DNA of 16,743 bases, from contig JBNJGY010000045.1 of assembly GCA_051748045.1 (NCBI GenBank), positions 1 to 16,743 of the forward strand. The letters are read 5' to 3'. This stretch comes from Thermotogota bacterium. GTDB lineage: Bacteria; Thermotogota; Thermotogae; Petrotogales; Petrotogaceae. Positions 75 through 12,963 of this stretch are shown here, piece by piece. How positions within the stretch are numbered: the stretch's first letter is position 1; each line of letters begins with the position of its first letter. The notes beneath the pieces are model-generated. The model worked only from the letters and a program-made list of their open reading frames with translations. It had not been told where the DNA came from and did not search any database. Made by a program: the position numbers and the translations under genes.

Positions 75-114
75 AAAATGGTGGATATATAAAAATATAT
101 ATCCACCATTTTTT
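75..114. terminator. Bidirectional intrinsic terminator between convergent hydrolase and TetR genes
   Basis: Perfect 17-bp inverted repeat AAAATGGTGGATATATA (75-91) / TATATATCCACCATTTT (96-112) with a 4-nt loop and A/T runs on both sides, lying between two convergent stop codons. Confidence 0.9.
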
Positions 115-1237
115 ATTTTTTTATTCCGTTTATCATATGACATTTTAATTCTTTAATTATTTCTTTTTCGTCTAGTATTTTTTCTAAATAAAACTTTTCA
201 ATACCCATATAATGAGATATACCCATTAATATATTAGATATTAATACATTAGAATTATATTTTATATCTTTCAAATTTTTCAAATAACCTTTTTCAAAAC
301 TTTCATAATAATCTTTAACGTCTTTATTTACGACAAATTCTGCTTCTCTAACTATTTCATAATAATCTTTGTTTTGAGAGAAGAACTTCAAAAATAAATA
401 GATACCCCTTAGCTCTTTTTCAAATCTATTTATAGAACTTGTAGTATTTTTAGTGATAAATCTTCTTGTTACTTTACTAATCTTTTTAACTATGGTAGAT
501 AAAAATTCTTCTTTAGAATTAAAATAAATATAAAAGGTTCCAATGGCATAACCAGCGTCTTTAACTATATCATAGATATTTACATTATAATATCCTTTAC
601 TCCCAAATAACTCTATACCTGATTTTAATAATCTATTTCTTGTATCATCTCTTTCTTTTTTATCAACACAATCTGTATCTTCATCAAAAACATTATCAAA
701 GTTTACTTCTTGATTATAAAAAATACCATTTAAAATAATTTCTTTTAATTGATTTTTTTGATATTCTTTTCCATTAAAGAGATTCCTTATGTTGATAAAC
801 CGAGTAGCGCCTGCAATATATAGATATTCAGCTTCAGAAATGTCTCTATTAAAAATTCTAGAAATTCCTGTTATATAAATTCTTCTCAATCTTTTTTCGT
901 ATTCCGGAAATCTATATTGAGCTTCTCTATATATAATAATCTGTTTTCTATATTTAAGAGCGCTTTCAATAACAATATCCAAAAATTTATTTAATCTATC
1001 TTCTATAGTAACTCCACGAATTGAATTAAATTCTCTTTCGAAAAATTTAATTATTTCATTAAGCTGATATTCAAATATTCCTTTTTTGTTCCTAAAATAT
1101 CTATAAAAAACTCCATTAGAAACCCCTGCTTCCCTACATATTTCAGCTACAGAAACAGTTTCAAACCACTTTTTTGAAAACAAATCACGTGAGGCATCTA
1201 TTAACTTTTCTAATGTTTCTGTTCTTCTCCTAGACAT
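113..1237 (-). CDS. TetR/AcrR-family transcriptional regulator with two tandem TetR modules
   Basis: N-terminal HTH (LIDASRDLFSKKWFETVSVAEICREAGVSNGVFYRYFRNK) and a second HTH near aa 197 (TRNRLLKSGIELFGSKGYYNVNIYDIVKDAGYAIGTFYIYFNSKEE). 374 aa is about twice a normal TetR. RBS AGGAG upstream of the ATG. Confidence 0.92.
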   Translation of the reverse strand: MSRRRTETLEKLIDASRDLFSKKWFETVSVAEICREAGVSNGVFYRYFRNKKGIFEYQLNEIIKFFEREFNSIRGVTIEDRLNKFLDIVIESALKYRKQIIIYREAQYRFPEYEKRLRRIYITGISRIFNRDISEAEYLYIAGATRFINIRNLFNGKEYQKNQLKEIILNGIFYNQEVNFDNVFDEDTDCVDKKERDDTRNRLLKSGIELFGSKGYYNVNIYDIVKDAGYAIGTFYIYFNSKEEFLSTIVKKISKVTRRFITKNTTSSINRFEKELRGIYLFLKFFSQNKDYYEIVREAEFVVNKDVKDYYESFEKGYLKNLKDIKYNSNVLISNILMGISHYMGIEKFYLEKILDEKEIIKELKCHMINGIKK

Positions 1238-1250
1238 CTTAAAGACTCCT

Positions 1251-2957
1251 TTAAGCTAAAAAACTAAGTAATTCTTTCTTGAATAATTCTGGATCTTCTA
1301 TTATTATAGAATGACCAACATGTTCATAATATTTTAATTCTCCATTTAATTTTTCTAATGTTTTTTTTGCCATATCTTTGCTTACTAATAAATCTTTTTT
1401 ACCAACGAAATAAAGAACTGGATTTTTAAAGTTTTCAGCAATATCAGAATAATCATAAGATTCTAAAGCTCTTGCGTTTTCAGTAAAGCATCTAGGATTC
1501 ATTAAAATTGCTTCATTAGTCAATATATTTAACATTTTTTTATCATTAGAAGATGGCATGGTTCCTTTTAATGAACTTTTTAATAATGATTTACTTGTTT
1601 TTAGTAGTTGTAATCCATTATAATTTTCTTCAGGAGTATTTAATCCATCAACAGGGGCTGAATCAACTAAAACCAATTTTTTAACCATTTCTGGATTATT
1701 ATAAGCTAAAGATTGAGCAACAGCTCCTCCAAGTGAATGAGCAACTAATATTGCTTTTTCTATTCCAATATTTTTCATAAATGCTTTAACATAATCAGCA
1801 TAAGTATCTATTTCAATATTTTCAATTCTATCAGAATGCCCAAAATTAGGTAAATCTAAAGCATAAGTTTTATAACCTTTTAAATCATTTACTTTATCAA
1901 ACCATCTATGTGAACCAAAGTTACCATGTATCATTATAACAGGTTCACCATTACCATTAACATTATAGTAAATATCTTTCCCATTAACAGTGGTTTTTTG
2001 AGAAGGTTTTGATTTTTCCTTCCAAATAAATTTAGTTATTTCAATAACAGGTCTTTCAAAATATTTATAATATCCCATGATTATTCCATATATTAATCCT
2101 TTTGGGAAGAATAAAACAAATATTATTAATAAAGTACCAAATATTACAGACATTGGTATATCAGTTCTTGAGAATAAGAAAGGCATTCCTGTTATAATAA
2201 ATGCTCCAATTAATCCACCCTCAATCGAAGCTAATCCACCTATTACAATCATTGCCAGTAAATTTAAAGATGTTGCTAGTGCAAAATCTGTAGGACCAAT
2301 ATAACCAATTGTATGAGCATATAATGCTCCAGCAATACCACCATAAACTGCAGAAACTATGAAAGCTTCTAATTTTGTTGTTGATATCCTCTTACCAAAA
2401 GATCTAGCTGCATATTCACTGTCCCTAGTCATTTGATAAGATATTCCATTTGGTGATTTGATTAATTTAGTTGCTATATAAGATAAAACTACATAAAAGG
2501 CTAAATTCAGTACATACATCCAAAAATCATTAGGCATTATATCTGGTATATCTCTAAGACCTATATGTCCTCCAAATACTTCTACTGAAGCTATCAGCTG
2601 TTCTACTGTAATACCAAAAGCCATAGTTGCAATAGCCAAATAGAAACCTTTTAATCTAAGTGCTGGAATTGATATAATTGCACCTAATACTCCAGAAAAG
2701 ACAATTGCTACAATTAAATTTAAAATAAAAGGAGTTCCAAAAGTTAAAGACATATAAGCTGTTGTATAAGCTCCTATTGCCATAAAAGCTGCATGTCCAA
2801 TTGACAATTGCCCTGTATATCCTATAAGGATATTTAATCCCATTGAGGCTATACCAAAAATAAATACTGAAGATAAAATCATTAAAAAGAATGATTCTTG
2901 TATGAAAATTATACCTAATAATAAACCAAAAATTAATAATAAAACTGATTTCTTCAT
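1251..2957 (-). CDS. LivM-like ABC permease fused to a C-terminal alpha/beta-hydrolase
   Basis: aa 1 to ~295 are hydrophobic with LivM motifs (GYTGQLSIGHAAFMAIGAY, LRLKGFYLAIAT, MIVIGG). aa ~320-568 form a hydrolase with HGN oxyanion motif, ALDLPNFGHS, nucleophile AHSLGG, GKKD acid and HVGH His. One uninterrupted ORF. Confidence 0.9.
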   Translation of the reverse strand: MKKSVLLLIFGLLLGIIFIQESFFLMILSSVFIFGIASMGLNILIGYTGQLSIGHAAFMAIGAYTTAYMSLTFGTPFILNLIVAIVFSGVLGAIISIPALRLKGFYLAIATMAFGITVEQLIASVEVFGGHIGLRDIPDIMPNDFWMYVLNLAFYVVLSYIATKLIKSPNGISYQMTRDSEYAARSFGKRISTTKLEAFIVSAVYGGIAGALYAHTIGYIGPTDFALATSLNLLAMIVIGGLASIEGGLIGAFIITGMPFLFSRTDIPMSVIFGTLLIIFVLFFPKGLIYGIIMGYYKYFERPVIEITKFIWKEKSKPSQKTTVNGKDIYYNVNGNGEPVIMIHGNFGSHRWFDKVNDLKGYKTYALDLPNFGHSDRIENIEIDTYADYVKAFMKNIGIEKAILVAHSLGGAVAQSLAYNNPEMVKKLVLVDSAPVDGLNTPEENYNGLQLLKTSKSLLKSSLKGTMPSSNDKKMLNILTNEAILMNPRCFTENARALESYDYSDIAENFKNPVLYFVGKKDLLVSKDMAKKTLEKLNGELKYYEHVGHSIIIEDPELFKKELLSFLA

Positions 2958-2959
2958 AC

Positions 2960-3841
2960 TCAGACTCTCCCTTCAAATTTAGATCCAAAGAGGCCTGTAG
3001 GTTTAACAACAAGCACTACGATTATTAAAATCAATATTATAGATAATTGATAATCTGGGGATATATAATACCCAACTAATTTTTCCATTATACCTAATAA
3101 TAATCCTCCAACTATAGCTCCAAATAAGTTATAAAATCCACCTAAAACTCCAGCAGTAAACCCATATAATTGGTAATTAACCATCATATTGGGATGAACA
3201 TTAGTTTTAGGTGCTGCTAATACAGCAACTAAAGCAGCTAATCCGATACCTATTCCCCATACAATTGAGTCAACCTTATTTATATTAATACCTACCACAC
3301 TAGCTCCTACTTCATCTTGTGATCTTGCTCTGATAGCGGTTCCTAATTTAGTATATTTTAAGAATAAAGCCAAAGCAATTGTAACTGATAAAGCAATAAC
3401 CATGTTTACCAAATCATTCATAGGTAATACTAATAAACTGTCTCCTAAGTTAAATAATAAAGGAGCGCTTTCTGTTATCTGTGGAAATTGATAATAGTCA
3501 GTTCCCCAAATAATTATTGCTAATCCTTCAAATATCATTAATAATCCTAAAGTTATAATAAGCATTGCTCCATGAGATAGATGTTTAACTGGTCTCATCA
3601 AAAACTTTTCTATTAGTTGAGCTAAAATAAAACCAAATAAAATAGCTCCTATAATAGCAACAAAAATATTTTGTGTCCACCCATATACGGTAAAAGCAAA
3701 AAATGCAGACATCATACCAGCAGATCCATGAGCAAAGTTCATAACAAATACTGTTTTAAATATTAAAGCAATCCCAAAAGCCATTAATCCATATAATGCA
3801 CCTTGAGGTATGCCTAATAAGACATTTTGTATAAAAGCCAT
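2960..3841 (-). CDS. LivH-like branched-chain amino acid-type ABC permease
   Basis: Motifs GALYGLMAFGIALIF..VMNFAHG, TKLGTAIRA, GVLGG, KPTGLFG. ATG at 3841 preferred over TTG at 3844 because it sits 4 nt from the GGGGTGA RBS, the same spacing as the binding-protein gene. Confidence 0.92.
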   Translation of the reverse strand: MAFIQNVLLGIPQGALYGLMAFGIALIFKTVFVMNFAHGSAGMMSAFFAFTVYGWTQNIFVAIIGAILFGFILAQLIEKFLMRPVKHLSHGAMLIITLGLLMIFEGLAIIIWGTDYYQFPQITESAPLLFNLGDSLLVLPMNDLVNMVIALSVTIALALFLKYTKLGTAIRARSQDEVGASVVGININKVDSIVWGIGIGLAALVAVLAAPKTNVHPNMMVNYQLYGFTAGVLGGFYNLFGAIVGGLLLGIMEKLVGYYISPDYQLSIILILIIVVLVVKPTGLFGSKFEGRV

Positions 3842-3851
3842 CAAATCACCC

Positions 3852-4544
3852 CTATATTCCTAAATACGCTTTTTTAACTGATTCATCATTCAATAAATCT
3901 TTTGCGTTTCCTTCTGTTGCTACTTTACCAATTTCTAATATATATGCTCTATCACTTATTTTCAATGATTTTAATGCATTTTGTTCTACTAAAAGTATCC
4001 CAACATCCATTTCTTTTAACTGAACCAAAACTTCAAAAATTTCATCTGTTATTAAAGGAGCTAATCCTAATGAAGGTTCATCCAGCATTAATATTTCTGG
4101 AGAACTCATTAAAGCTCTTCCAACTGCAAGCATTTGTTGTTCTCCACCTGATAATGATCCAGCTGCTTGTTTTTTTCTATCATTTAAAATAGGAAACAAT
4201 TTATAAACTTTTTGAAAGTTTTCTTTTTCATTACCTCTTACAAAACTACCTAACTTTAAATTTTCTTCTACAGATAACTGTGGAAAAACTCTTCTGTTTT
4301 CTGGAGCTAAAACTAATCCCTTTTTTACTTTTTCTTCTGTAGATGCTTTTGTCAAATTTTCTCCATTAAATTCAATATTTGCAGAGGATTTTATTATTCC
4401 CATAGTACCGAATAAAGTAGATGTTTTTCCTGCGCCATTAGCTCCAAGAATACTAACAATTTCACCTTTATCAATATTAAAAGAAATATCTTTTACAGCA
4501 GCAACATGACCATAATTTACTTTTAAATTATTAACTTTAAGCAT
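3852..4544 (-). CDS. LivF-like ABC transporter ATP-binding protein
   Basis: Walker A GANGAGKT, signature LSGGEQQM, Walker B LMLDEPSLGLAP, VEQN switch typical of LivF. Confidence 0.95.
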   Translation of the reverse strand: MLKVNNLKVNYGHVAAVKDISFNIDKGEIVSILGANGAGKTSTLFGTMGIIKSSANIEFNGENLTKASTEEKVKKGLVLAPENRRVFPQLSVEENLKLGSFVRGNEKENFQKVYKLFPILNDRKKQAAGSLSGGEQQMLAVGRALMSSPEILMLDEPSLGLAPLITDEIFEVLVQLKEMDVGILLVEQNALKSLKISDRAYILEIGKVATEGNAKDLLNDESVKKAYLGI

Positions 4545-5292
4545 TTTCGCTCTCCCCCAAATACACTTTTATAACTTCTTCGTTGTTTCCTATTTCTTCT
4601 GGTGTTCCTTCAGCAATTTTTTCACCAAAACTCATAACAGTAATTCTATCTGAAACTTGCATAACTAAATTCATATCATGTTCAACTAGTAAAATGGTTT
4701 TACCGTTATTTTTTAATAATTTCATTATATCTCTAATTTCTGAGGTTTCGTTATGATTCAACCCTGCTGCGGGTTCATCAAACAATAAAATTTTTGGATT
4801 GGATACAATTGCTCTAGCAATTTCAACTCTTTTTAAAATACCATAAGGAAGTGATGATGGATAAGAATTTAATCTATTTTTTATTTGTAATAATTCAGCA
4901 ATTTCTAAAATTTTCTCCCTTGCTATTGTTTCAAAATGTGATCTTTTTTTAGAAAAAAGGTAAAATATATTTTTATCATAATTATGTAGATAACCAGATA
5001 ATATGTTGTTATAAACATTCATCCCTTTAAATAACTGTAAGTTTTGGAATGTTCTACTTATGCCTTTATATATAATTTGATCCGGTCTAGTTTGCATTAA
5101 AGAATTTCCTTCAAAATTAACTTCTCCCTCTACAGGTTCCAAAACTCTAGTAATTACATTAAATAATGTAGTTTTCCCAGCACCATTAGGACCTATTAAA
5201 GAGTGAATAATTCCTTTTTTCACATTCATACTCATATCTTTTACAGCTATCAAACCACCAAAAGATACAGTGACATTTTTAACTTCTAACAT
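4537..5292 (-). CDS. LivG-like ABC transporter ATP-binding protein
   Basis: Walker A GPNGAGKT, RTFQN, LPYG signature, LLFDEPAAG, VEHDM. Overlaps the next gene by 8 nt. Confidence 0.95.
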   Translation of the reverse strand: MLEVKNVTVSFGGLIAVKDMSMNVKKGIIHSLIGPNGAGKTTLFNVITRVLEPVEGEVNFEGNSLMQTRPDQIIYKGISRTFQNLQLFKGMNVYNNILSGYLHNYDKNIFYLFSKKRSHFETIAREKILEIAELLQIKNRLNSYPSSLPYGILKRVEIARAIVSNPKILLFDEPAAGLNHNETSEIRDIMKLLKNNGKTILLVEHDMNLVMQVSDRITVMSFGEKIAEGTPEEIGNNEEVIKVYLGESENA

Positions 5293-5352: not shown

Positions 5353-6522
5353 TTAATATTCCATGTAGTATAGCCAGTCAGTTACTTTTTCAAATACTCC
5401 ATCTTTAATTTCCATAATGTACATAGAATCTTTACCAATTCTTGAAATATCTTTGTTAGGTCCTTCAAAGTCATAATAAGTAACACCTGTTGTTATGTCT
5501 CCTGACCAATTATCAAAAGTTTCTAAGGCGTCAACTAAAGTTTCTCTTGTTAGGTTATCTCCAGCTCTTTTTACGCCTTCTGTAAAAGTTTCAGCAGCTA
5601 TTAATCCTGCTACAGCGTAAGCGTTTGGAATTTCACCATTATTATATTTACCATAAATTTCTAATGCTGGAGTATCAGGGTCTGTGAAGTCTACATCAAC
5701 CCATGCCATTGATTTAACTCCTTCTGCATCTTTTCCTAATAAGTCAATGAATGAAACACTTGCGTTTGCATATGAAGTTACGTATTCAACATTTTTTAAG
5801 CCATATTGTTTAGCTTGTTTAATGAAGTTTGGTGCTTGTGTTCCATAAAGCATAACTCCAATAGCTTCCGGTCTGTTAGAAATTAATCTTGTAACTTCTG
5901 CTGAAAAATCTTCTGCGGAAGGATTTACTGGAATGAAAGTAGCATTAATTCCTCTTGATTCAAATAATTCTTTTGCTGCGTCTCTGAATTCTTTACCATC
6001 ATCTGCATTTCTGTAAACAATTGCAATTTTTGTATATCCAATATCAGCAAAATAATTAGCAACAATGTTTCCTTCTACAGTATAGTTTGGTTGAACTGGA
6101 AAAATGAATTCTTTAGCTGGGAAACTTAATAATGATGTTCCCGCACCTTGATAAACAAAAGGTACTTCATTACTGTTTAGATATTCCATAACAGCTAAAA
6201 CACCTGGTGTTCCTAATCCCCCAACAATTGAAAAAACCTCATCACTTTCAACTAATCTTTTTACTTCAACTGTTGTTTTTGCTGGTGAAAATTGGTCATC
6301 TGCTACTAGTAAGTTAATTTTTCTTCCGTTTACTCCTCCATTATCGTTTACCCAATTAAAGTATGCTTCCATACCTTTTGTCATAGGTTGTCCGATAAAT
6401 GATATAGGACCAGATAAAGCTTGGAAAGAACCAATGAGAATTTCATCATCTGTTACTCCAACTTCAGCAAAAAGTCCCACTACCATGAGTAAAGCTACCA
6501 TAAGTGTTAATACCTTTTTCAT
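5353..6522 (-). CDS. ABC transporter substrate-binding protein, LivJ/LivK (periplasmic binding protein type 1) family
   Basis: Signal peptide MKKVLTLMVALLMVVGLFA|EVGVTDDEILIG, then ALSGP and VNDNGGVNGRKINLLVADDQFSP typical of the HAAT family. RBS GGGGTGA. Confidence 0.92.
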   Translation of the reverse strand: MKKVLTLMVALLMVVGLFAEVGVTDDEILIGSFQALSGPISFIGQPMTKGMEAYFNWVNDNGGVNGRKINLLVADDQFSPAKTTVEVKRLVESDEVFSIVGGLGTPGVLAVMEYLNSNEVPFVYQGAGTSLLSFPAKEFIFPVQPNYTVEGNIVANYFADIGYTKIAIVYRNADDGKEFRDAAKELFESRGINATFIPVNPSAEDFSAEVTRLISNRPEAIGVMLYGTQAPNFIKQAKQYGLKNVEYVTSYANASVSFIDLLGKDAEGVKSMAWVDVDFTDPDTPALEIYGKYNNGEIPNAYAVAGLIAAETFTEGVKRAGDNLTRETLVDALETFDNWSGDITTGVTYYDFEGPNKDISRIGKDSMYIMEIKDGVFEKVTDWLYYMEY

Positions 6523-6533
6523 AAGATCACCCC

Positions 6534-7742
6534 TTATTTTATATTACGTACTACAACTGCAGTACCCATGCCTCCTCCAATACAGAGAGAAGCCAATCCA
6601 ATTTCTTTTTCTTGTTTTTTCATTTCGTGTAGTAAAGTTACAATGATTCTGTTTCCTGACGCACCTATTGGATGTCCTAATGCTATTGCTCCACCATTTA
6701 CATTAGTTCTTTCAATAAACCAATTTTTATCTTTACCAAATTCTTGGCCTAATTCTTTAATTACTCCTAAAGATTGTGCAGCGAATGCTTCGTTTAATTC
6801 GATTAATTCTATATCCTCTATAGAAATATCGTTTTTACTTAAAACATTTTTTACAGCAGGAACTGGTCCTAATCCCATGTATGCTGGGTCTACTCCTGCT
6901 TCATCATAAGCAACTAATTCAGCGATTGGTTTTAGATTATATTTTTCTACAGCTTCTTCAGATGCTAATATTATAGCACTTGCACCATCGTTAATCCCAG
7001 AAGCATTAGCAGCTGTAACAGAACCATCCTTTTTGAATGCAGGTCTTAGTTTTGCTAAACCTTCTATTGTTGCGTTTAATCTTGGGTGTTCATCAGTATC
7101 AAAAAGAAGTGTACCTTTTCTTGTTTTTATTTCATAAGGTATAATTTCATCTTTAAATTTTCCTTCTTCGATTGCTTTTTGAGTTCTATTTTGAGAAATA
7201 ACAGCAAATTCATCTTGTTCTTCTCTAGATAAATTGTGTTTTTCTGCAATATTTTCTGCCGTCATTCCCATGTGATAGTTATTAAAAACATCAGTTAATC
7301 CATCTAAAATCATATGATCAAGCATTTTTTGATGACCAAATTTACTTCCAAATCTATTTTTAGAATCAATCATTAAAGGCGCTTGTGACATATTTTCGAT
7401 CCCAGCTGCAACTACTATTTCTGCGTCTCCAACTTTTATATCAGTAGCTCCAATCATAACTGATTTCATACCACTTCCGCAGAGCATATTAACAGCGTAA
7501 GCGGGTTTATTTTCAGGAATACCTGCATATAAAGCTACTTGTCTACCTGGACCCATTCCTTCGCCAGCTTGTAGAACATTACCTACTATTGTTTTATCTA
7601 CATAATCTGGTTTAACATTTGATTCTTCTAAAATTGTTTTAACTACATGAGCACCTAATTTTGTAGCTGGTTCATTTTTTAATGTACCACCAAAAGTTCC
7701 AATAGCAGTTCTCTTAGCAGCAACTATAAATACTTTTCTCAA
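6534..7742 (-). CDS. Acetyl-CoA C-acetyltransferase (thiolase II; ThlA/AtoB/PhaA-like)
   Basis: Catalytic motifs NMLCGSG, NASGINDGA, ELNEAFA, GGAIALGHPIGASG, LCIGGGMG. TTG start with GGAGGA RBS. Confidence 0.95.
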   Translation of the reverse strand: MRKVFIVAAKRTAIGTFGGTLKNEPATKLGAHVVKTILEESNVKPDYVDKTIVGNVLQAGEGMGPGRQVALYAGIPENKPAYAVNMLCGSGMKSVMIGATDIKVGDAEIVVAAGIENMSQAPLMIDSKNRFGSKFGHQKMLDHMILDGLTDVFNNYHMGMTAENIAEKHNLSREEQDEFAVISQNRTQKAIEEGKFKDEIIPYEIKTRKGTLLFDTDEHPRLNATIEGLAKLRPAFKKDGSVTAANASGINDGASAIILASEEAVEKYNLKPIAELVAYDEAGVDPAYMGLGPVPAVKNVLSKNDISIEDIELIELNEAFAAQSLGVIKELGQEFGKDKNWFIERTNVNGGAIALGHPIGASGNRIIVTLLHEMKKQEKEIGLASLCIGGGMGTAVVVRNIK

Positions 7743-7754
7743 GACAATTCCTCC

Positions 7755-9071
7755 TTATAATATGTAACCAATTTCTTTTGCTTCCTTTTTCAATTGATCT
7801 CTAAAATCTGGATGAGCTATTGAAATTAATAATTCAACTCTTTCAGCTAAACTCTTTCCTCTTAAATGAGCTACTCCATATTCAGTTACTACATAATCTA
7901 TATCATGTCTTGGAACTGATATCGTTGCACCTCTTGGATGAGCTACAGTAATTGTCGATATTTTACCGTCTTTAGCAGTAGATCTTAAAGCTATTATTCC
8001 TTTTCCGTTCTTACTTTTTATAGCTCCTCTATGAGTATCGAGTTGGCCACCTGTTCCAGAAAATTGTTTTGTACCTATAGCTTCACTCACAACTTGTCCT
8101 TGTAGATCCACAGAAATTGCAGTATTTATAGAAACCATATTATCATTTTGTGCTATTACATATGGATCATTAACATAATTACCTTTCATTACCCAAACTC
8201 CAGGATTATTATTCAACCATTTATACATTCTTTTTGAACCAAGTGCAAATGTACAAATTGATTTACCTTTCCAAAGTGTTTTATTAGTATTCGTTATTGC
8301 TCCACTTTCAAAAAGATCTATCATTGATTCTGTAAACATTTCAGTATGTACACCAAGATCTTTTTTATGATCAAGAAGTTTTGCAACTGCATTAGGAATT
8401 CCACCAATTCCAATTTGGATAGTTGATCCATCTTCCACTAAATCAGCAATAAACTGAGCAATTGTTATTTCTGTTTCCGTTGGTTCTACAATTGGTAGTG
8501 GTGGTACTTCCCAACTGCTTTCAACAATCATATCAGCTTTGTTAATATGTACACCAGTTTCTCCGTGTATAAAAGGCATTTGATCATTAACTTCAAAAAT
8601 AACTTTATCTGCTTGTTCCATTACTTCCATTTCATAAACATTAGATAAACCTAAATTAAAAAAACCATTTTCTTCAAGCATTGGAGCTACAGCACCCCAA
8701 AAAACTAATGTTCTTCCTTCTTCTTTCTCTGCAACTAATTTATCAGTTCCAGCCATATGTAAGTTGTTAGGTATATAATCTACTGTTTTTAAATCATTTT
8801 TTCTTGCTTTTCTTGTTGGTGGGCTGAAAAACCAAGAATGATTGTTCATTTTGTCTTCATATTCTTTGTCTGCAAAAAAAGGATATTCTTTCATATTTAA
8901 ACAAGTCAAAACTCTTAGTGAATCAAAGTGATCTTTATATTTATGAACATTGCTTAAAAAACCTTGAGCTTCTGTTGCGGCTAATCCAACAACTACTGTT
9001 ACTGTTTTTGGCAATGATAATATTGCTTCTTCTATAGATTTTAATTTATTATTATATACATCTTTCCACAT
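7755..9071 (-). CDS. Acetyl-CoA hydrolase/transferase family protein (4-hydroxybutyrate CoA-transferase Cat2/AbfT-like)
   Basis: DGSTIQIGIGGIPNAVA, LGVHTEM (catalytic Glu), SGTGGQLD, DYVVTEYGVAHLRGK, LISIAHPDFR. Confidence 0.9.
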   Translation of the reverse strand: MWKDVYNNKLKSIEEAILSLPKTVTVVVGLAATEAQGFLSNVHKYKDHFDSLRVLTCLNMKEYPFFADKEYEDKMNNHSWFFSPPTRKARKNDLKTVDYIPNNLHMAGTDKLVAEKEEGRTLVFWGAVAPMLEENGFFNLGLSNVYEMEVMEQADKVIFEVNDQMPFIHGETGVHINKADMIVESSWEVPPLPIVEPTETEITIAQFIADLVEDGSTIQIGIGGIPNAVAKLLDHKKDLGVHTEMFTESMIDLFESGAITNTNKTLWKGKSICTFALGSKRMYKWLNNNPGVWVMKGNYVNDPYVIAQNDNMVSINTAISVDLQGQVVSEAIGTKQFSGTGGQLDTHRGAIKSKNGKGIIALRSTAKDGKISTITVAHPRGATISVPRHDIDYVVTEYGVAHLRGKSLAERVELLISIAHPDFRDQLKKEAKEIGYIL

Positions 9072-9091: not shown

Positions 9092-9832
9092 TTATAATAC
9101 TGTACCACCATTTACACTTAAAACATGCCCTGTTATATAAGATGCTTCTTCTGAAGCTAAGAAAAATACAGCATCTGCAATTTCTGATGATTCACCCATT
9201 CTGCCTAAAGTAACTTTTTTTGCTATCGCGTCTAATACTTTTTCAGGCATTTTTTCTGTCATAGGAGTTTTTATAAATCCTGGAGCAACTGCATTCACTC
9301 TTATATTTGCACCTTTTCTTGCAAATTCTTTAGCCCATGAATATGTCATTGAAATAACTCCACCTTTAGTTGCAGCATAGTTAGTTTGTCCGATATTTCC
9401 TTTTTCTCCAACTATAGAAGAGATATTCACTACATTACCTTCACCATTTTCTAACATCGTTGGAACTATCGCTTGTGTCATATTGAAAACACCCTTTAAG
9501 TTAACGTTTAATACGAAATCCCAATCTTCTTCTGACATTTTTTGAATTAAAGCGTCTCTTGTTACTCCTGCATTATTAACTAATATATCTATTTTTCCAT
9601 ATTCATTTTTTACATTATCTACAAATTCTTTTATAGCATCTCTATTAGTAACATCTAAAACATAGCCTTTTACATTAGAAAATTCTTTTTCGACTTCTTT
9701 TAAAGCTTCTTCATTCATATCAATAGCGAAAACCACTTTTGCTTCTTCTTTAGCCATTTTAGAAACTATTGATAAACCAATTCCTCTTGCTCCACCTGTA
9801 ACGACACATACTTTGTCTTTCATTCTATTCAT
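9092..9832 (-). CDS. Classical SDR, FabG/PhaB-like 3-oxoacyl (acetoacetyl)-CoA/ACP reductase or 3-hydroxyacyl-CoA dehydrogenase
   Basis: TGGARGIG, NNAGVTRD, NISS, GNIGQTNYAATK (YxxxK), VNAVAPGFIKT. Confidence 0.9.
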   Translation of the reverse strand: MNRMKDKVCVVTGGARGIGLSIVSKMAKEEAKVVFAIDMNEEALKEVEKEFSNVKGYVLDVTNRDAIKEFVDNVKNEYGKIDILVNNAGVTRDALIQKMSEEDWDFVLNVNLKGVFNMTQAIVPTMLENGEGNVVNISSIVGEKGNIGQTNYAATKGGVISMTYSWAKEFARKGANIRVNAVAPGFIKTPMTEKMPEKVLDAIAKKVTLGRMGESSEIADAVFFLASEEASYITGHVLSVNGGTVL

Positions 9833-9865: not shown

Positions 9866-10879
9866 TTAACCTTTATATTCTCCCCAATGAACATGAGCTG
9901 CGGCCCAAACAAACCCTATTCCAGCTCCAACCATTATTACATCGTCTCCATCGTGAAGTCTTCCTTCTTCAAGCGCTATTTTCATTGATAAAACTTGATC
10001 ATTTTGTCCTATGTGCCCATATTTTTGAAGATATGTAGTTTGATCTTCTTCTAAACCAAATTCTTCAATAACAGCATCATGAGATGATTTCTTGAAATGT
10101 AAAATAGCTAAATAATCAATATCTTTATCTGTTTTATCAGATTCTGCTAATGCTTCTCTGATAACTGCATAGAAATTAGGCATAGTTCTTTCACCAAGTT
10201 TTTGTTTAAATGAATCAACATCATCTATAACAAAATGCATTTTATCTGCATCTTCTGGTTTCATAGGCCAATTTTTTGTTCCACCAACAGGTACAACACA
10301 ATCTTCAGAAAAATCACCGTCTCCTTTGAATGCAGTTCCTAAAATAACATTTTTATTAAAGTCTTTCCTAAGCAACATAGCAGCTCCACCAGCTCCTATA
10401 TCGAACATAAAAGATGTTTCAGCTACTTTATAATCTATTAAATCTCCGTTTCTATAACCACTTACTAGTAAAGCGGTTTTATATTTTTTATTTCCCAATA
10501 ATAATGATTTTGCTGTTTCCATTCCAGCCATCATAGAACCACACATTGCTTCCATATCAAAACCCCAAGCATTTTTAGCTCCTATTTCGTCAGCAACTTT
10601 CAAACTAGCTAACCAACATGGATAATCTTTGTGCTGGGCTCCATTCCAGATTACAATATCAATTTCTTCAGGATTAATTCCTGATTCCTCAATAGCTTCC
10701 TTAGCAGCTTGAATTCCCATATAACTTGTTGTATCTTTTTTTCCTGGAATAGGTTTTTTACTAACTCCAAATTTTTCTCTAATAACCCATTCTGGTATAC
10801 CTGATTTTTCTGCTATTTCATCAGATGTAATATAATTATCCGGAATGTATATTCCCATTCCCATTATTCCAACGTTCAC
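9866..10879 (-). CDS. FabH/KAS III-like (thiolase-fold) enzyme with a non-canonical active site
   Basis: GMGIYIP N-terminus, catalytic AMCGS, GAGGAA, LAILH, YGHIGQNDQ where FabH has YGNT, and C-terminal VGAGIGFVW. GTG start with GAGGTGA RBS. Confidence 0.88.
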   Translation of the reverse strand: MNVGIMGMGIYIPDNYITSDEIAEKSGIPEWVIREKFGVSKKPIPGKKDTTSYMGIQAAKEAIEESGINPEEIDIVIWNGAQHKDYPCWLASLKVADEIGAKNAWGFDMEAMCGSMMAGMETAKSLLLGNKKYKTALLVSGYRNGDLIDYKVAETSFMFDIGAGGAAMLLRKDFNKNVILGTAFKGDGDFSEDCVVPVGGTKNWPMKPEDADKMHFVIDDVDSFKQKLGERTMPNFYAVIREALAESDKTDKDIDYLAILHFKKSSHDAVIEEFGLEEDQTTYLQKYGHIGQNDQVLSMKIALEEGRLHDGDDVIMVGAGIGFVWAAAHVHWGEYKG

Positions 10880-10925
10880 TTTAAAATCACCTCTTTATTA
10901 ATCTAATAAAAACCATATATTATAT

Positions 10926-10943
10926 AATGAATCACTTCTCATT
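10926..10943. promoter_or_regulatory. Candidate TetR operator O1 (AATGA-N8-TCATT)
   Basis: AATGAATCACTTCTCATT is an imperfect palindrome overlapping the -10 box and the predicted transcription start. Confidence 0.6.
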
Positions 10944-10969
10944 TTAATATATTTTAATCTTTTTTTCAA
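10941..10969 (-). promoter_or_regulatory. Predicted sigma70-type promoter of the 10-gene operon
   Basis: Minus strand reads TTGAAA (10969-10964), 17 nt, TAAAAT (10946-10941), about 60 nt upstream of the GTG start. Confidence 0.7.
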
Positions 10970-11081: not shown

Positions 11082-11114
11082 AAAAAAGACGGTTTTTTAA
11101 AAACCGTCTTTTTT
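11082..11114 (-). terminator. Intrinsic terminator overlapping the end of the PfkB-like gene
   Basis: AAAAAAGACGGTTTTT (11082-11097) / AAAAACCGTCTTTTTT (11099-11114) inverted repeat spanning the TAA at 11097-11099, with a U6 tail on the minus strand. Confidence 0.8.
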
Positions 11115-11855
11115 TTCTAATGTTTTAATCTTATTATACGCGCCTTTAATTTCATTTGTCATCTCAATCTTTTCAATAATTTTATATAAATTATTATTAC
11201 TGATTCTATTCTTTAAATAATAATCTATAAAAATTACATCTAAAAGATCGCCAGTACCAAATTTATACTTAAATTTTTTCCCGTTTGAAGGATAGAATTC
11301 ATCTTTATAATAAAAACCTTCTATATCCATTTTTCCAAGAGCAATGAGATCTGTTGATATTTCACTATCTTTATTAGATATTAGAATATGATTATCTTTT
11401 TTAAAATAATTTTTCAGAATAAAATGCCTAGGCCCACTGTCAATAAAAATCAACTTATAATCTAAATTGATAATTTTATCGAAATCATTTTTATTAATTT
11501 CCGTATTTACAAAAGCATATTCAGCTTTTTTTTGTGGGAATTTAATATCTTTTTCATTATTATTTCTCTGAATTGCAAAAGGCTTTTCATTTTGGCTAAT
11601 AAAAATATCTGATTTTTCATTTCTAATATTTAGTAAATCTATATTTATACCTTTATCTTTTAATATTTTTAAAGTCGTATTGGCATTTTCATCATTACCA
11701 ATATTTCCAATAAATCTAACTTTATTTTTCAATATGGATAGTCCTAGAGCAATATTAAAACCAGATCCACCAGGAAATATATCAATTTGTTTTTTATGAG
11801 GTGTATCACCATTTATATAAATATCTGTAAATACACCCCCATAAACGTCAATCAT
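11097..11855 (-). CDS. Divergent PfkB/ribokinase-family carbohydrate kinase
   Basis: PGGSGFNIALGLSILKNKVRFIGNIGND matches PfkB signature 1. GTGD matches the anion-hole/catalytic Asp motif. Short (252 aa) and degenerate in the middle. Confidence 0.72.
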   Translation of the reverse strand: MIDVYGGVFTDIYINGDTPHKKQIDIFPGGSGFNIALGLSILKNKVRFIGNIGNDENANTTLKILKDKGINIDLLNIRNEKSDIFISQNEKPFAIQRNNNEKDIKFPQKKAEYAFVNTEINKNDFDKIINLDYKLIFIDSGPRHFILKNYFKKDNHILISNKDSEISTDLIALGKMDIEGFYYKDEFYPSNGKKFKYKFGTGDLLDVIFIDYYLKNRISNNNLYKIIEKIEMTNEIKGAYNKIKTLEKKDGF

Positions 11856-11856
11856 T

Positions 11857-12963
11857 TTAAATTTTTATTAAATTATAATCAGTTGTTCCCATTCCCATTT
11901 CTTCACCATAACTTATTTGCACATAACCTTGAGAATTTTCTCTCATGCCAACGAACTTATCCTTTCCAGGTTCAAAGTTATTTTTTAGATGAGATCCTTC
12001 AAAACCATGTTGATTATTTACTAGATCATAGCAAGCTTTATCCAAAGCTATTGGATCTTTTGAAGCTAAAATACCAATATCTGGAACTATTGGTGCATCA
12101 GACCAAGGAGCACAATCACAGTCCGGAGTTACTTTCATAACAAAATTAATATAGCCAACTTTATCTTTTTTATTTTTTACAGCACCATATGCGTATTCTG
12201 TCATTCTTTCCATAAAGTCTTTTATTTCTGTTTTCCAATTAACCCCTATAGCATCTACAGGACAAACTTGCATACATTCTCCACAACCTATACATTTACT
12301 AACGTCTATTTGTGCTTTTCCTTCAATCATAGTAATTGCATTTTCAGGGCAGTTATTTACACATGTTTGGCATCCTATACAAGAATCTTTATCAACTTTT
12401 GGCCTCATAGAATGTTGTTGCATTTTTCCTACCCTTGGAGCACAACCCATGGCAATATTCTTTAACGCTCCACCAAATCCAGCAAGCTCATGACCTTTAA
12501 AATGAGACATAACAATCATGCTATCTGCATTTTCTATATCTCTTGCTATTTTAACTGTTTTAAAATTTTTTTGATTAATCTCAACATCAGATATATTTTT
12601 ACTCAACATTCCATCTGCAATAATAACAGGAGCACCAATAACTGAGTATACAAAACCGTGTTCAGTAGCAGTTACCAAATGATCAACAGAATTTTTTCTC
12701 TCACCTTTATATAAGGTATTTGTATCAGTTGCAAAAGGTTTACCTTTCGCTTCTTTTACCTTATCTACAACTGGTCTTACAAATACAGGACTTATAAATC
12801 CGTCATTACCTCTTTCGCCAAAATGAATTTTTATTGCAGTTAAATCATTTTCACTTATCAAATCTGCAAATCCTGCTCTTTCAAATAATCTTTTAATTTT
12901 ATTTACTTTATTATCTTGCGGTTTTCTAGCTCTTAAATCTGCAAAATAAACTTCTGCTGCCAT
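11857..12963 (-). CDS. DUF362-domain Fe-S protein with an inserted 2x[4Fe-4S] ferredoxin domain
   Basis: AIKIHFGE, TDTNTLY, SHFKGH..GFGGALKN.AMGCA, two CxxCxxCxxxCP motifs (CIGCQTCVNNCP, CIGCGECMQVCP), PDCDC, DIGILASKDPIALD. Confidence 0.88.
   Translation of the reverse strand: MAAEVYFADLRARKPQDNKVNKIKRLFERAGFADLISENDLTAIKIHFGERGNDGFISPVFVRPVVDKVKEAKGKPFATDTNTLYKGERKNSVDHLVTATEHGFVYSVIGAPVIIADGMLSKNISDVEINQKNFKTVKIARDIENADSMIVMSHFKGHELAGFGGALKNIAMGCAPRVGKMQQHSMRPKVDKDSCIGCQTCVNNCPENAITMIEGKAQIDVSKCIGCGECMQVCPVDAIGVNWKTEIKDFMERMTEYAYGAVKNKKDKVGYINFVMKVTPDCDCAPWSDAPIVPDIGILASKDPIALDKACYDLVNNQHGFEGSHLKNNFEPGKDKFVGMRENSQGYVQISYGEEMGMGTTDYNLIKI

Follow-up and report, generated by a model that had tools for sequence, protein, structure and literature searches.

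The window analysed here is a stretch of 16,743 nucleotides, contig JBNJGY010000045.1 of a Thermotogota bacterium from the family Petrotogaceae (assembly GCA_051748045.1). Ten genes on its minus strand run head to tail, with gaps of -8 to 60 bases between them. The first, at 9866 to 10879, encodes a protein with the fold of beta-ketoacyl-ACP synthase III (KAS III; ACP is acyl carrier protein); the last encodes a double TetR regulator. In the first protein the active-site asparagine of FabH, the enzyme that initiates fatty-acid synthesis, is replaced. The best-supported reading, unproven as it is, is that this protein is an acyltransferase and not a FabH.

An earlier reading of the same letters, called the original prediction below, had located the open reading frame (ORF), the codon of the catalytic cysteine and the motif YGHIGQNDQ, and all of these positions are correct on the sequence. 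The gene and its active-site features are:

9866..10879, minus strand: KAS III-fold gene, member of NF005308/PRK06840, gene 1 of the operon (ORF, Pfam, NCBIfam, AlphaFold2 model, structure matches)
10541..10543, minus strand: codon tgt of Cys113, in EAMCGS, on FabH Cys112; proposed acyl-carrying nucleophile (HMMER alignments)
10097..10099, minus strand: codon cat of His261, in LAILH, one column past FabH His244 (alignments)
9995..10021, minus strand: motif YGHIGQNDQ (HMMER alignments)
10013..10015, minus strand: codon cac of His289, at the FabH Asn274 position (HMMER alignments)
9998..10000, minus strand: codon gat of Asp294, five residues after His289 (sequence)

Family and fold

The ORF is intact. 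It encodes 337 amino acids from a GTG start, with the Shine-Dalgarno-like AGAGGTG 8 nucleotides 5' of that start. The protein is a full-length match to NF005308 (PRK06840), a family named '3-oxoacyl-ACP synthase'. It reaches 469.2 bits against a cut-off of 315, and residues 1-334 cover positions 3-337 of the 339 in the profile. Against the FabH model TIGR00747 it scores 133 bits (131.5 bits in the genome search), well short of the cut-off of 292.1. The Pfam domains PF08545 (ACP_syn_III, 47.7 bits) and PF08541 (ACP_syn_III_C, 73.2 bits) are both over their gathering scores. The N-terminal half also matches archaeal 3-hydroxy-3-methylglutaryl-CoA (HMG-CoA) synthase models (CoA being coenzyme A) with an E value of 8.8e-20, below the cut-off. 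Pfam finds no Thiolase_N or Thiolase_C domain in this ORF; the true thiolase of the operon is the gene at 6534-7742.

An AlphaFold2 model of the protein has a mean predicted local distance difference test score (pLDDT) of 97.4 and a predicted template modelling score (pTM) of 0.94. It was built on an alignment of 84 sequences, A1, which were chosen for having the cysteine and GH..D. The predicted structure has the KAS III fold, a thiolase-like arrangement of five layers. Its best structural matches in Foldseek are FabH, with a template modelling (TM) score of 0.85 to B. subtilis FabHA (8vd9), and a second structural list has FabH at Z 40.6 with a root mean square deviation of 1.8 over 310 residues. 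BioZ, ZhuH, PqsD and PqsC are effectively level with FabH in these matches, and OleA is also among the rows. CerJ, DpsC and ChlB3 are not in the rows shown, an absence that is no evidence of a difference. In the ESM Atlas, only generic '3-oxoacyl-ACP synthase' clusters were matched. Fused forms of the protein numbered zero at E <= 1e-30 among proteins of 591-2000 amino acids, which is weak evidence.

The name of the family implies an ACP-dependent condensation. No support for this was found, and both the active-site signature and the gene context argue against it. On this evidence the PRK06840 family is catalogued, yet misnamed and uncharacterised. A literature search under the name 'PRK06840' returned no paper. 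Searches on poly(3-hydroxybutyrate) (PHB) and anaerobic depolymerases, on KAS III acyltransferases of the Cys-His-Asp type and on thiolysis to 3-hydroxybutyryl-CoA (3HB-CoA; 3HB below for 3-hydroxybutyrate) found nothing on a PRK06840-type family. In a paper on PHB mobilisation in Bacillus cereus, the term '3-oxoacyl-ACP synthase' refers to PhaB only. The FabH of Kosmotoga (Kole_0969) lies in a fab cluster and is seemingly not the KAS III-like gene.

Catalytic residues

The catalytic triad of FabH is Cys-His-Asn (C112, H244, N274). The protein keeps the cysteine; Asn274 has become His289, and the column of His244 holds Leu260. HMMER aligned the protein with FabH chains of known structure, E. 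coli 3il9 and 9ka2 among them, and placed Cys113 on Cys112 and His289 on Asn274 (kyGHigq against KYGNTSA). The original prediction of a retained cysteine, and of an asparagine replaced within a GH-x4-D motif that ends in Asp294, is therefore borne out.

The same prediction had taken the histidine of LAILH for that of FabH, and HFKK for the counterpart of HQAN. This has to be revised. A conserved histidine, His261, is present in LAILH, yet shifted by one residue relative to His244. Gap-free alignments over this stretch put FabH His244 on Leu260, FabH Gln245 on His261 and HQAN on LHFK; one further alignment is gapped differently across it. A representative of the Ser type, P0133, retains the FabH proline and reads P-L-H against P-H-Q in FabH.

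All of C113, H261, H289 and D294 are kept in the closest homologues (120 of 120, at 62-93% identity). A wider set consists of the 87 other full-length representatives (at least 300 amino acids) among the best 150 matches to 50% clusters, FabH-type rows included. Here Cys113 is found in 78, His289 in 72 and Asp294 in 76, and His261 in 36, its place being taken by Gln in 35 and by Asn in 9. A1, whose 84 rows were selected for Cys and GH..D, has four invariant columns and no more: C113, G288, H289 and D294. A further conserved motif of the protein is His261-x-Lys263-x-Ser265. Judged by these alignments, the replacement is strongly conserved and not a matter of chance. The universal core is thus Cys plus a His and an Asp that stand five residues from each other.

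Two further sites were compared with FabH. In a profile alignment to the E. coli enzyme, Arg249, Lys256 and Lys257, which we take to be its ACP docking site, line up with Ser265, Glu272 and Glu273, and the basic patch is absent. Trp31 aligns with FabH Trp32, presumably the tryptophan that stacks on CoA.

Comparison with known acyltransferases

In DpsC, CerJ and ChlB3 the nucleophile at the place of FabH Cys112 is a Cys or a Ser, and H-x4-D lies at the FabH Asn site. Cys113 supplies the former here and His289/Asp294 the latter, with a spacing equal to that in ChlB3, DpsC and OxaC. The likely equivalence of His289 and Asp294 to the His and Asp of CerJ, ChlB3 and DpsC rests on this spacing, on the alignment with FabH Asn274 and on the histidine of those enzymes, which we take to sit at the FabH Asn site.

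According to PMC9573744, ChlB3 has the triad Cys113/His296/Asp301, where the His-Asp pair heightens the reactivity of the cysteine, as in CerJ (C116 and H295, plus an Asp). The same paper describes DpsC as Ser-His-His (His266, His297), with two histidines that stabilise enolisation, and it says in passing that all these enzymes bar CerJ catalyse Claisen condensation. PMC12308425 instead lists Ser118-His297-Asp302 for DpsC and Ser113-His292-Asp297 for OxaC. It reports that acyltransferase activity was shown for DpsC and ketosynthase activity was not, and describes CerJ as an O-malonyl transferase.

The protein thus shares with DpsC, CerJ, ChlB3, ChlB6 and OxaC, which belong to actinomycete secondary metabolism, the KAS III fold, the position of the nucleophile, the His in place of Asn and the Asp at +5. 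According to these sources, the enzymes of this type use acyl-CoA or acyl-carrier thioesters, and CerJ forms an oxygen ester. The differences are also considerable. The protein is only distantly related to them (E 1e-9 to 1e-10, against 1e-27 for FabH), it has the extra His261-x-Lys263-x-Ser265, and its gene lies outside any polyketide or antibiotic cluster, with no carrier protein nearby. It belongs to a catabolic importer operon of anaerobes instead, and its relatives extend to archaea.

With FabH it has in common the fold, the position of the cysteine, Trp31/Trp32 and the domains PF08545 and PF08541. What sets it apart from FabH is the His for Asn274, the Leu in the His244 column, Ser/Glu/Glu at the docking positions and the score of 133 bits. 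In addition, its gene lies away from the fab cluster of its genome, and orthologues occur alongside true FabH.

The A1 profile finds FabH at 1.8e-65, against 4.5e-38 to 1.3e-35 for the CerJ/ChlB3/DpsC group. FabH chains make up the top five structure-sequence alignments for the whole protein, for P0162, for the C-terminal 112 amino acids, for the A1 profile and for P0133. With the C-terminal 112 amino acids, ChlB3 comes in at rank 6 and CerJ at rank 7, behind the FabH chains. A fragment of 37 amino acids around the motif had no match among the sequences of solved structures.

From 96 rows a quick maximum-likelihood tree was made with IQ-TREE, with support from the Shimodaira-Hasegawa approximate likelihood ratio test (SH-aLRT). 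The query is inside a clade of 48 rows (99% SH-aLRT) that are nearly all of the x-H-H-D type. FabH-type rows form a separate 100% clade, joined by a second KAS III-like paralogue that is described below. Thirty-seven rows, mostly of the Cys/Asn/Gln/His/Asp type, lie across the root (85% support, drawn open). CerJ, ChlB3, ChlB6, DpsC, NphT7 and OleA are not among the rows of this tree.

The operon

The KAS III-like gene had been placed first in an operon, and this stands. The ten co-directional genes encode enzymes of CoA thioesters, an ester hydrolase and an importer. Apart from the KAS III-like gene, the features are:

9092..9832, minus strand: FabG/PhaB-like short-chain dehydrogenase/reductase (SDR), 3-oxoacyl thioester reductase type (TIGR01830, 297.7 bits; TIGR01829, acetoacetyl-CoA reductase, 260.4 bits)
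7755..9071, minus strand: CoA-transferase of the 4-hydroxybutyrate / butyryl-CoA:acetate family (PDB 3eh7, E 6.7e-97)
6534..7742, minus strand: thiolase, acetyl-CoA C-acetyltransferase (TIGR01930, 488.5 bits)
5353..6522, minus strand: Liv/HAAT-type substrate-binding protein with signal peptide (Pfam, sequence)
4537..5292, minus strand: LivG-like ATP-binding cassette (ABC) ATPase (Pfam)
3852..4544, minus strand: LivF-like ABC ATPase (Pfam)
2960..3844, minus strand: LivH-like permease (Pfam)
1251..2957, minus strand: LivM-like permease fused to a C-terminal alpha/beta hydrolase with GHSLGG serine nucleophile (Pfam, NCBIfam, PDB match)
113..1237, minus strand: regulator with two TetR DNA-binding domains, 374 amino acids (two TetR_N stretches, Pfam)
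10919..10969, minus strand: two overlapping promoter-like sites 5' of the KAS III-like gene (consensus match only)
75..112, minus strand: hairpin with a 17-bp stem directly 3' of the TetR stop codon (terminator-like on both strands)

The closest solved relative of the fused hydrolase is the PHB depolymerase 8ynv (E 4.6e-19). Its best NCBIfam hydrolase model is NF050089, for intracellular short-chain polyhydroxyalkanoate (PHA) depolymerases, where 118.5 bits is below the cut-off of 300. In a crude hydropathy scan, the final membrane segment is followed by a Lys-rich linker, which suggests that the hydrolase faces the cytoplasm. If so, import and hydrolysis would be physically coupled. Matches of the double TetR protein to acyl-CoA-related TetR models are all below cut-off. 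In the Pfam results for the window operon there is no gene for ACP and none that forms malonyl-CoA.

Some other themes for the operon were considered, namely lysine fermentation and the catabolism of phloroglucinol, of 3-oxoadipate enol-lactone and of acyl-homoserine lactones. These were dropped since the Pfam results contain none of the enzymes diagnostic of them, and since true PHA depolymerases recur beside the KAS III-like gene.

Conservation of the neighbourhood

Species-representative genomes were scanned for related loci. This yielded 31, from Thermotogota, Spirochaetota and metagenome-assembled genomes (MAGs) of Clostridia/Bacillota, with orthologues at 59-70% identity. Gene content was scored by tblastn (E <= 1e-10, query coverage of at least 50%). 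The SDR is found in 27 of these loci, the CoA-transferase in 26, the thiolase in 25, at least one part of the Liv ABC system in 27 and the double TetR regulator in 23, where several of the absences are contig ends. The permease-hydrolase fusion occurs in 16 of the 31, and elsewhere the hydrolase is a separate gene. The two genes upstream of the operon in the window are found in none. What looks like a minimal core occurs in a Fervidobacterium locus, where the KAS III-like gene is accompanied only by the CoA-transferase, the ABC system and a hydrolase gene that stands by itself. Within the phylum, 83 of 151 Thermotogota genomes have a PRK06840-type protein over cut-off.

Six of the Clostridia/Spirochaetota loci (L012, L015, L016, L017, L020 and L027) carry a second KAS III-like paralogue, 22-25% identical. 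It adjoins a CoA-transferase and a thiolase (for example L017:7657-8664, minus strand). The cysteine is kept in it, with Thr in the His244 column and Tyr in the Asn274 column (YTGSGC).

More distant relatives were found in a plasmid collection, searched by tblastn with the enterobacterial representative P0124, which shares 39% identity with the query. Homologues lie on haloarchaeal plasmids, among them:

L043:9001-10011 and L044:8944-10011: haloarchaeal plasmid '3-oxoacyl-ACP synthase' genes (tblastn)

The homologue on Salarchaeum pJOR178 is 38% and that of Halobaculum salinum 36% identical to the query, and they keep Cys, His261, His289 and Asp294. Both organisms have the gene at the end of a Liv-type ABC operon, with a start that overlaps the permease stop. 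Salarchaeum has a MaoC dehydratase, an alpha/beta hydrolase and an AMP-binding ligase just upstream. The Halobaculum operon consists of the transporter and the KAS III-like gene only. An ACP model had no match in Haloferax volcanii, the control haloarchaeon; to our knowledge, archaea generally lack ACP.

Relatives in Bacillus sp. N5-665 and Brevibacillus laterosporus are 30.5-31.5% identical to P0124 (tblastn). Their gene order is TetR, AMP-ligase (acyl-CoA), MaoC, the KAS III-like gene, an NHL/SGL propeller, and then Liv ABC or SDR genes. The propeller gene, directly 3' of the KAS III-like gene (L045:10990-12855 and L046:11016-12917), encodes an NHL-repeat beta-propeller of 620-630 amino acids. 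This protein has weak matches to SGL lactonases and arylesterases, and it occupies the place that the alpha/beta hydrolase has in other clusters.

What recurs around the gene, across domains of life, is a CoA-activating enzyme, an enzyme of the MaoC or FabG/PhaB type, an esterase-type protein and a Liv-type importer. We take the MaoC hydratase-type and FabG/PhaB-type classes to act on (R)-3-hydroxyacyl-CoA.

Links to PHA depolymerases

In one MAG (locus L001) a PHA depolymerase gene lies directly upstream of the orthologue on the same strand and matches NF050089 with 448.5 bits. A comparison of coordinates found this arrangement in six Thermotogota genomes, five of which (G081-G085) are from one genus, the sixth being G067. 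Over the 151 Thermotogota genomes, NF050089 is over its cut-off in 14, all from the window's own family. The KAS III-like gene is also present in 13 of these 14, the exception being a genome that is 62% complete. The depolymerase-bearing genomes are kin, so these counts do not represent independent cases.

The window's own genome has a PHA depolymerase as well (446.6 bits), at C75:5380-6273 (L042). It lies at the very end of its contig, beside a MalT/LuxR-type regulator. As for PHA synthases in this genome, PhaC_N had no match, and the class III PhaC model yielded only weak hydrolase-like matches (24.8 bits). The upstream PHA depolymerase genes strengthen the probable link of the operon to 3-hydroxybutyrate esters.

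Fatty-acid genes of the genome

A profile search of the window's own genome, which is 99.65% complete, finds no other FabH-like gene. A fatty-acid cluster on another contig (C70, L047) has FabF, a DegV/FakB-like protein, FabZ, FabK and FabD, and the genome has two ACPs. A role for the KAS III-like enzyme in fatty-acid initiation in this organism may follow. In a control search for FabH, 13 of 14 control genomes match, and Thermotoga maritima is not among them; therefore a member of this phylum manages without FabH. Outside the phylum, 3 of 5 genomes that bear the cluster have a genuine FabH over cut-off elsewhere in the genome.

Proposed function

The fold, the replaced asparagine, the conservation of Cys, His and Asp, the family, the operon and the links to PHA depolymerases are established, and from them we infer the substrates, direction and chemistry that follow. 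The favoured explanation, which we consider to have an even chance of being right, is that of a KAS III-fold acyltransferase, not a fatty-acid-initiating FabH, in a TetR-controlled operon for the uptake and breakdown of (R)-3HB esters, in the form of PHB oligomers. The His289-Asp294 pair would activate Cys113, and Cys113 would accept a short (3-hydroxy)acyl group as a thioester. This group would be passed from Cys113 to CoA, or be taken from it. The original prediction of an acyltransferase in place of FabH stands as far as the shortfall against TIGR00747 and the Cys...His-x4-Asp signature go; the reaction itself is a proposal.

The more specific version that we favour, possible but held more tentatively, is an energy-conserving 'thiolytic depolymerase' at the exit of the Liv-type importer, turning imported 3HB oligomers and CoA into 3HB-CoA. 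The reaction would be the cleavage of an oxygen ester in the imported oligomer, (3HB)n + CoA -> 3HB-CoA + (3HB)n-1. Freed 3HB would be activated by the neighbouring CoA-transferase. The FabG/PhaB-like dehydrogenase would then oxidise (R)-3HB-CoA to acetoacetyl-CoA, and the thiolase would split this into two acetyl-CoA. The permease-fused hydrolase would trim what the acyltransferase leaves. Thiolysis would account for the company of an importer and a CoA-activating enzyme in which the gene is found, and for its standing alone with a transporter in Halobaculum. Fermenters would keep such a gene because one thioester, worth about one ATP, is saved per ester bond compared with hydrolysis.

A precedent is PhaZ1 of R. 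eutropha, which, according to PMC3430594, cleaves PHB with CoA to 3HB-CoA. With this thiolysis by PhaZ1/PhaZa1, and with 3HB-oligomer hydrolases, the proposal shares the net reaction and the downstream reductase and thiolase steps. PhaZ1 is however a PHB depolymerase that acts on intracellular granules and does not have the KAS III fold; here the enzyme has that fold, the oligomers would be imported, and no PHA synthase was found.

Several observations weigh against the acyltransferase. FabH is nearest by sequence (E 8.3e-28, against 8.1e-11 for CerJ, 6.8e-11 for ChlB3 and 4.7e-9 for DpsC), and FabH, BioZ, ZhuH and PqsD fill the structural lists. The genome has FabF, FabZ, FabK, FabD and two ACPs and no other FabH-like gene. 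The operon already holds a full 3HB pathway without the KAS III-like enzyme, made up of hydrolase, CoA-transferase, dehydrogenase and thiolase. The transfer from ester to thioester is uphill by roughly +12 kJ/mol, so that the product would have to be removed. Finally, decarboxylative condensation could be supported by His289 jointly with the second conserved histidine, His261. Should His261 extend into the active site, the set of residues would resemble the Ser-His-His that PMC9573744 describes for DpsC, and condensing chemistry would be conceivable.

Alternative explanations

The last of these points leads to the alternative of a decarboxylating condensing enzyme like FabH or NphT7. This would join acetyl-CoA and a malonyl thioester to acetoacetyl-CoA or acetoacetyl-ACP, with His261 and His289 acting as in KAS I/II. 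The fold, the best sequence matches, the retained Cys113 and the lack of another FabH-like gene in the genome all fit this, as do the two histidines kept in 120 of 120 close homologues and the stabilised enolisation ascribed to the histidines of DpsC in PMC9573744. We nevertheless regard it as unlikely. Asn274 is replaced, His261 is one residue off His244, and in 44 of the 87 wider relatives His261 gives way to Gln or Asn, in contrast to the retained His289 and Asp294. The operon has no gene that supplies malonyl-CoA and none for ACP, and the docking positions, whose role is presumed, are Ser/Glu/Glu. DpsC itself showed acyltransferase and not ketosynthase activity according to PMC12308425. 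In 3 of 5 genomes a true FabH exists besides the orthologous cluster, and relatives sit on haloarchaeal plasmids, the ACP model having no match in Haloferax volcanii.

Much of this also bears on a slightly less probable alternative, that of a loading acyltransferase in the manner of DpsC. Such an enzyme would take acetyl, acetoacetyl or (R)-3-hydroxybutyryl units off CoA and pass them to ACP, and so prime fatty-acid synthesis from imported substrate without FabH. It would suit a genome with two ACPs, elongation genes and no FabH, and (R)-3-hydroxybutyryl-ACP is a normal intermediate of fatty-acid synthesis. The triad is of the type found in DpsC and OxaC, which load carrier proteins according to PMC12308425. 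Yet none of the operons examined has a carrier-protein gene. The Ser/Glu/Glu at the FabH docking positions, the real FabH beside the cluster in 3 of 5 genomes, and the transporter-coupled members on plasmids of haloarchaea, where Haloferax volcanii again lacks a match to the ACP model, count against it in the same way. Thermotoga maritima, absent from the FabH-matching controls, indicates that a member of the phylum manages without FabH.

Given about the same low probability is a Claisen or retro-Claisen reaction that acts on CoA thioesters without decarboxylation, as in thiolase, OleA or HMG-CoA synthase, with His-Asp as acid/base. It could for example cleave or form a 3-oxoacyl-CoA beyond the reach of the ordinary thiolase. 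The protein does belong to the thiolase superfamily, its N-terminal half matches the archaeal HMG-CoA synthase models (below cut-off), and the clusters of Bacillus, Brevibacillus and Salarchaeum have a ligase and MaoC with no thiolase beside the KAS III-like gene. A genuine thiolase is however present in the window operon and in 25 of 31 related loci, and in Halobaculum there is only the transporter besides the KAS III-like gene. The H-x4-D members CerJ, ChlB3, DpsC and OxaC have moreover been reported or proposed as acyltransferases in PMC9573744 and PMC12308425.

The most improbable of the alternatives runs in the opposite direction. An ester synthase, an analogue of PhaC on a KAS III scaffold, would make oligo- or poly-3-hydroxybutyrate from 3HB-CoA, with the thiolase and reductase as PhaA and PhaB. 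Thiolase and PhaB-like reductase are the classic pair for PHB synthesis, no PhaC was found in the genome, and PhaC is likewise a Cys-His-Asp enzyme. But the importer, the hydrolases, the CoA-transferase and the TetR regulator have a catabolic look, and the recurrent neighbours are depolymerase genes, not phasins or synthase partners. PHB granules are not known to have been reported from Thermotogota, though no search was aimed at them. CerJ, according to PMC9573744, does make esters from acyl-CoA.

Significance

If the acyltransferase reading is true, many genes called '3-oxoacyl-ACP synthase' are misnamed, in Thermotogota, Spirochaetota, Bacillota, Chloroflexota, enterobacteria and haloarchaea. 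In the literature found, the described Cys-His-Asp KAS III-like acyltransferases all come from natural-product pathways of actinomycetes; there would then be a much larger branch in central catabolism. Should thiolysis be the reaction, PRK06840 and its C-H-H-D relatives in bacteria and haloarchaea would be ester/CoA transacylases of primary metabolism. Anaerobes of digesters, oil reservoirs and salt lakes would have a way to feed on PHB fragments freed by other microbes. It might also open a CoA-dependent depolymerisation of commercial bioplastic, straight to the CoA-activated monomer.

Other features of the window

Contigs of 150-386 nucleotides from four metatranscriptome libraries (salt lake metagenome, two studies) match the window between 405 and 11997, mostly at 99% identity or more. 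They include matches to the KAS III-like gene (10106-10256) and to genes upstream of the operon. This is compatible with expression of the operon, and also with DNA carry-over; the contigs are too short to tell of a transcript, its ends or co-transcription, and stretches they leave uncovered are uninformative.

The promoter-like sites lie in an AT-rich spacer and are not above chance, with 14 found against 9.0 +/- 2.9 in shuffles. Inverted repeats in this spacer are AT-rich and offer no clear operator, and Rfam has no match in the window. Terminator-like hairpins number 2, against 0.2 in shuffles. The hairpin at 75-112 is a near-perfect palindrome flanked by T-runs on either strand, and has the look of a bidirectional terminator at the end of the operon.

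The region 5' of the operon, at 11097-12963 on the minus strand, encodes a DUF362 protein with two 4Fe-4S motifs, and also a protein of 252 amino acids whose match to PfkB sugar kinases is confined to the N-terminal third of the kinases.

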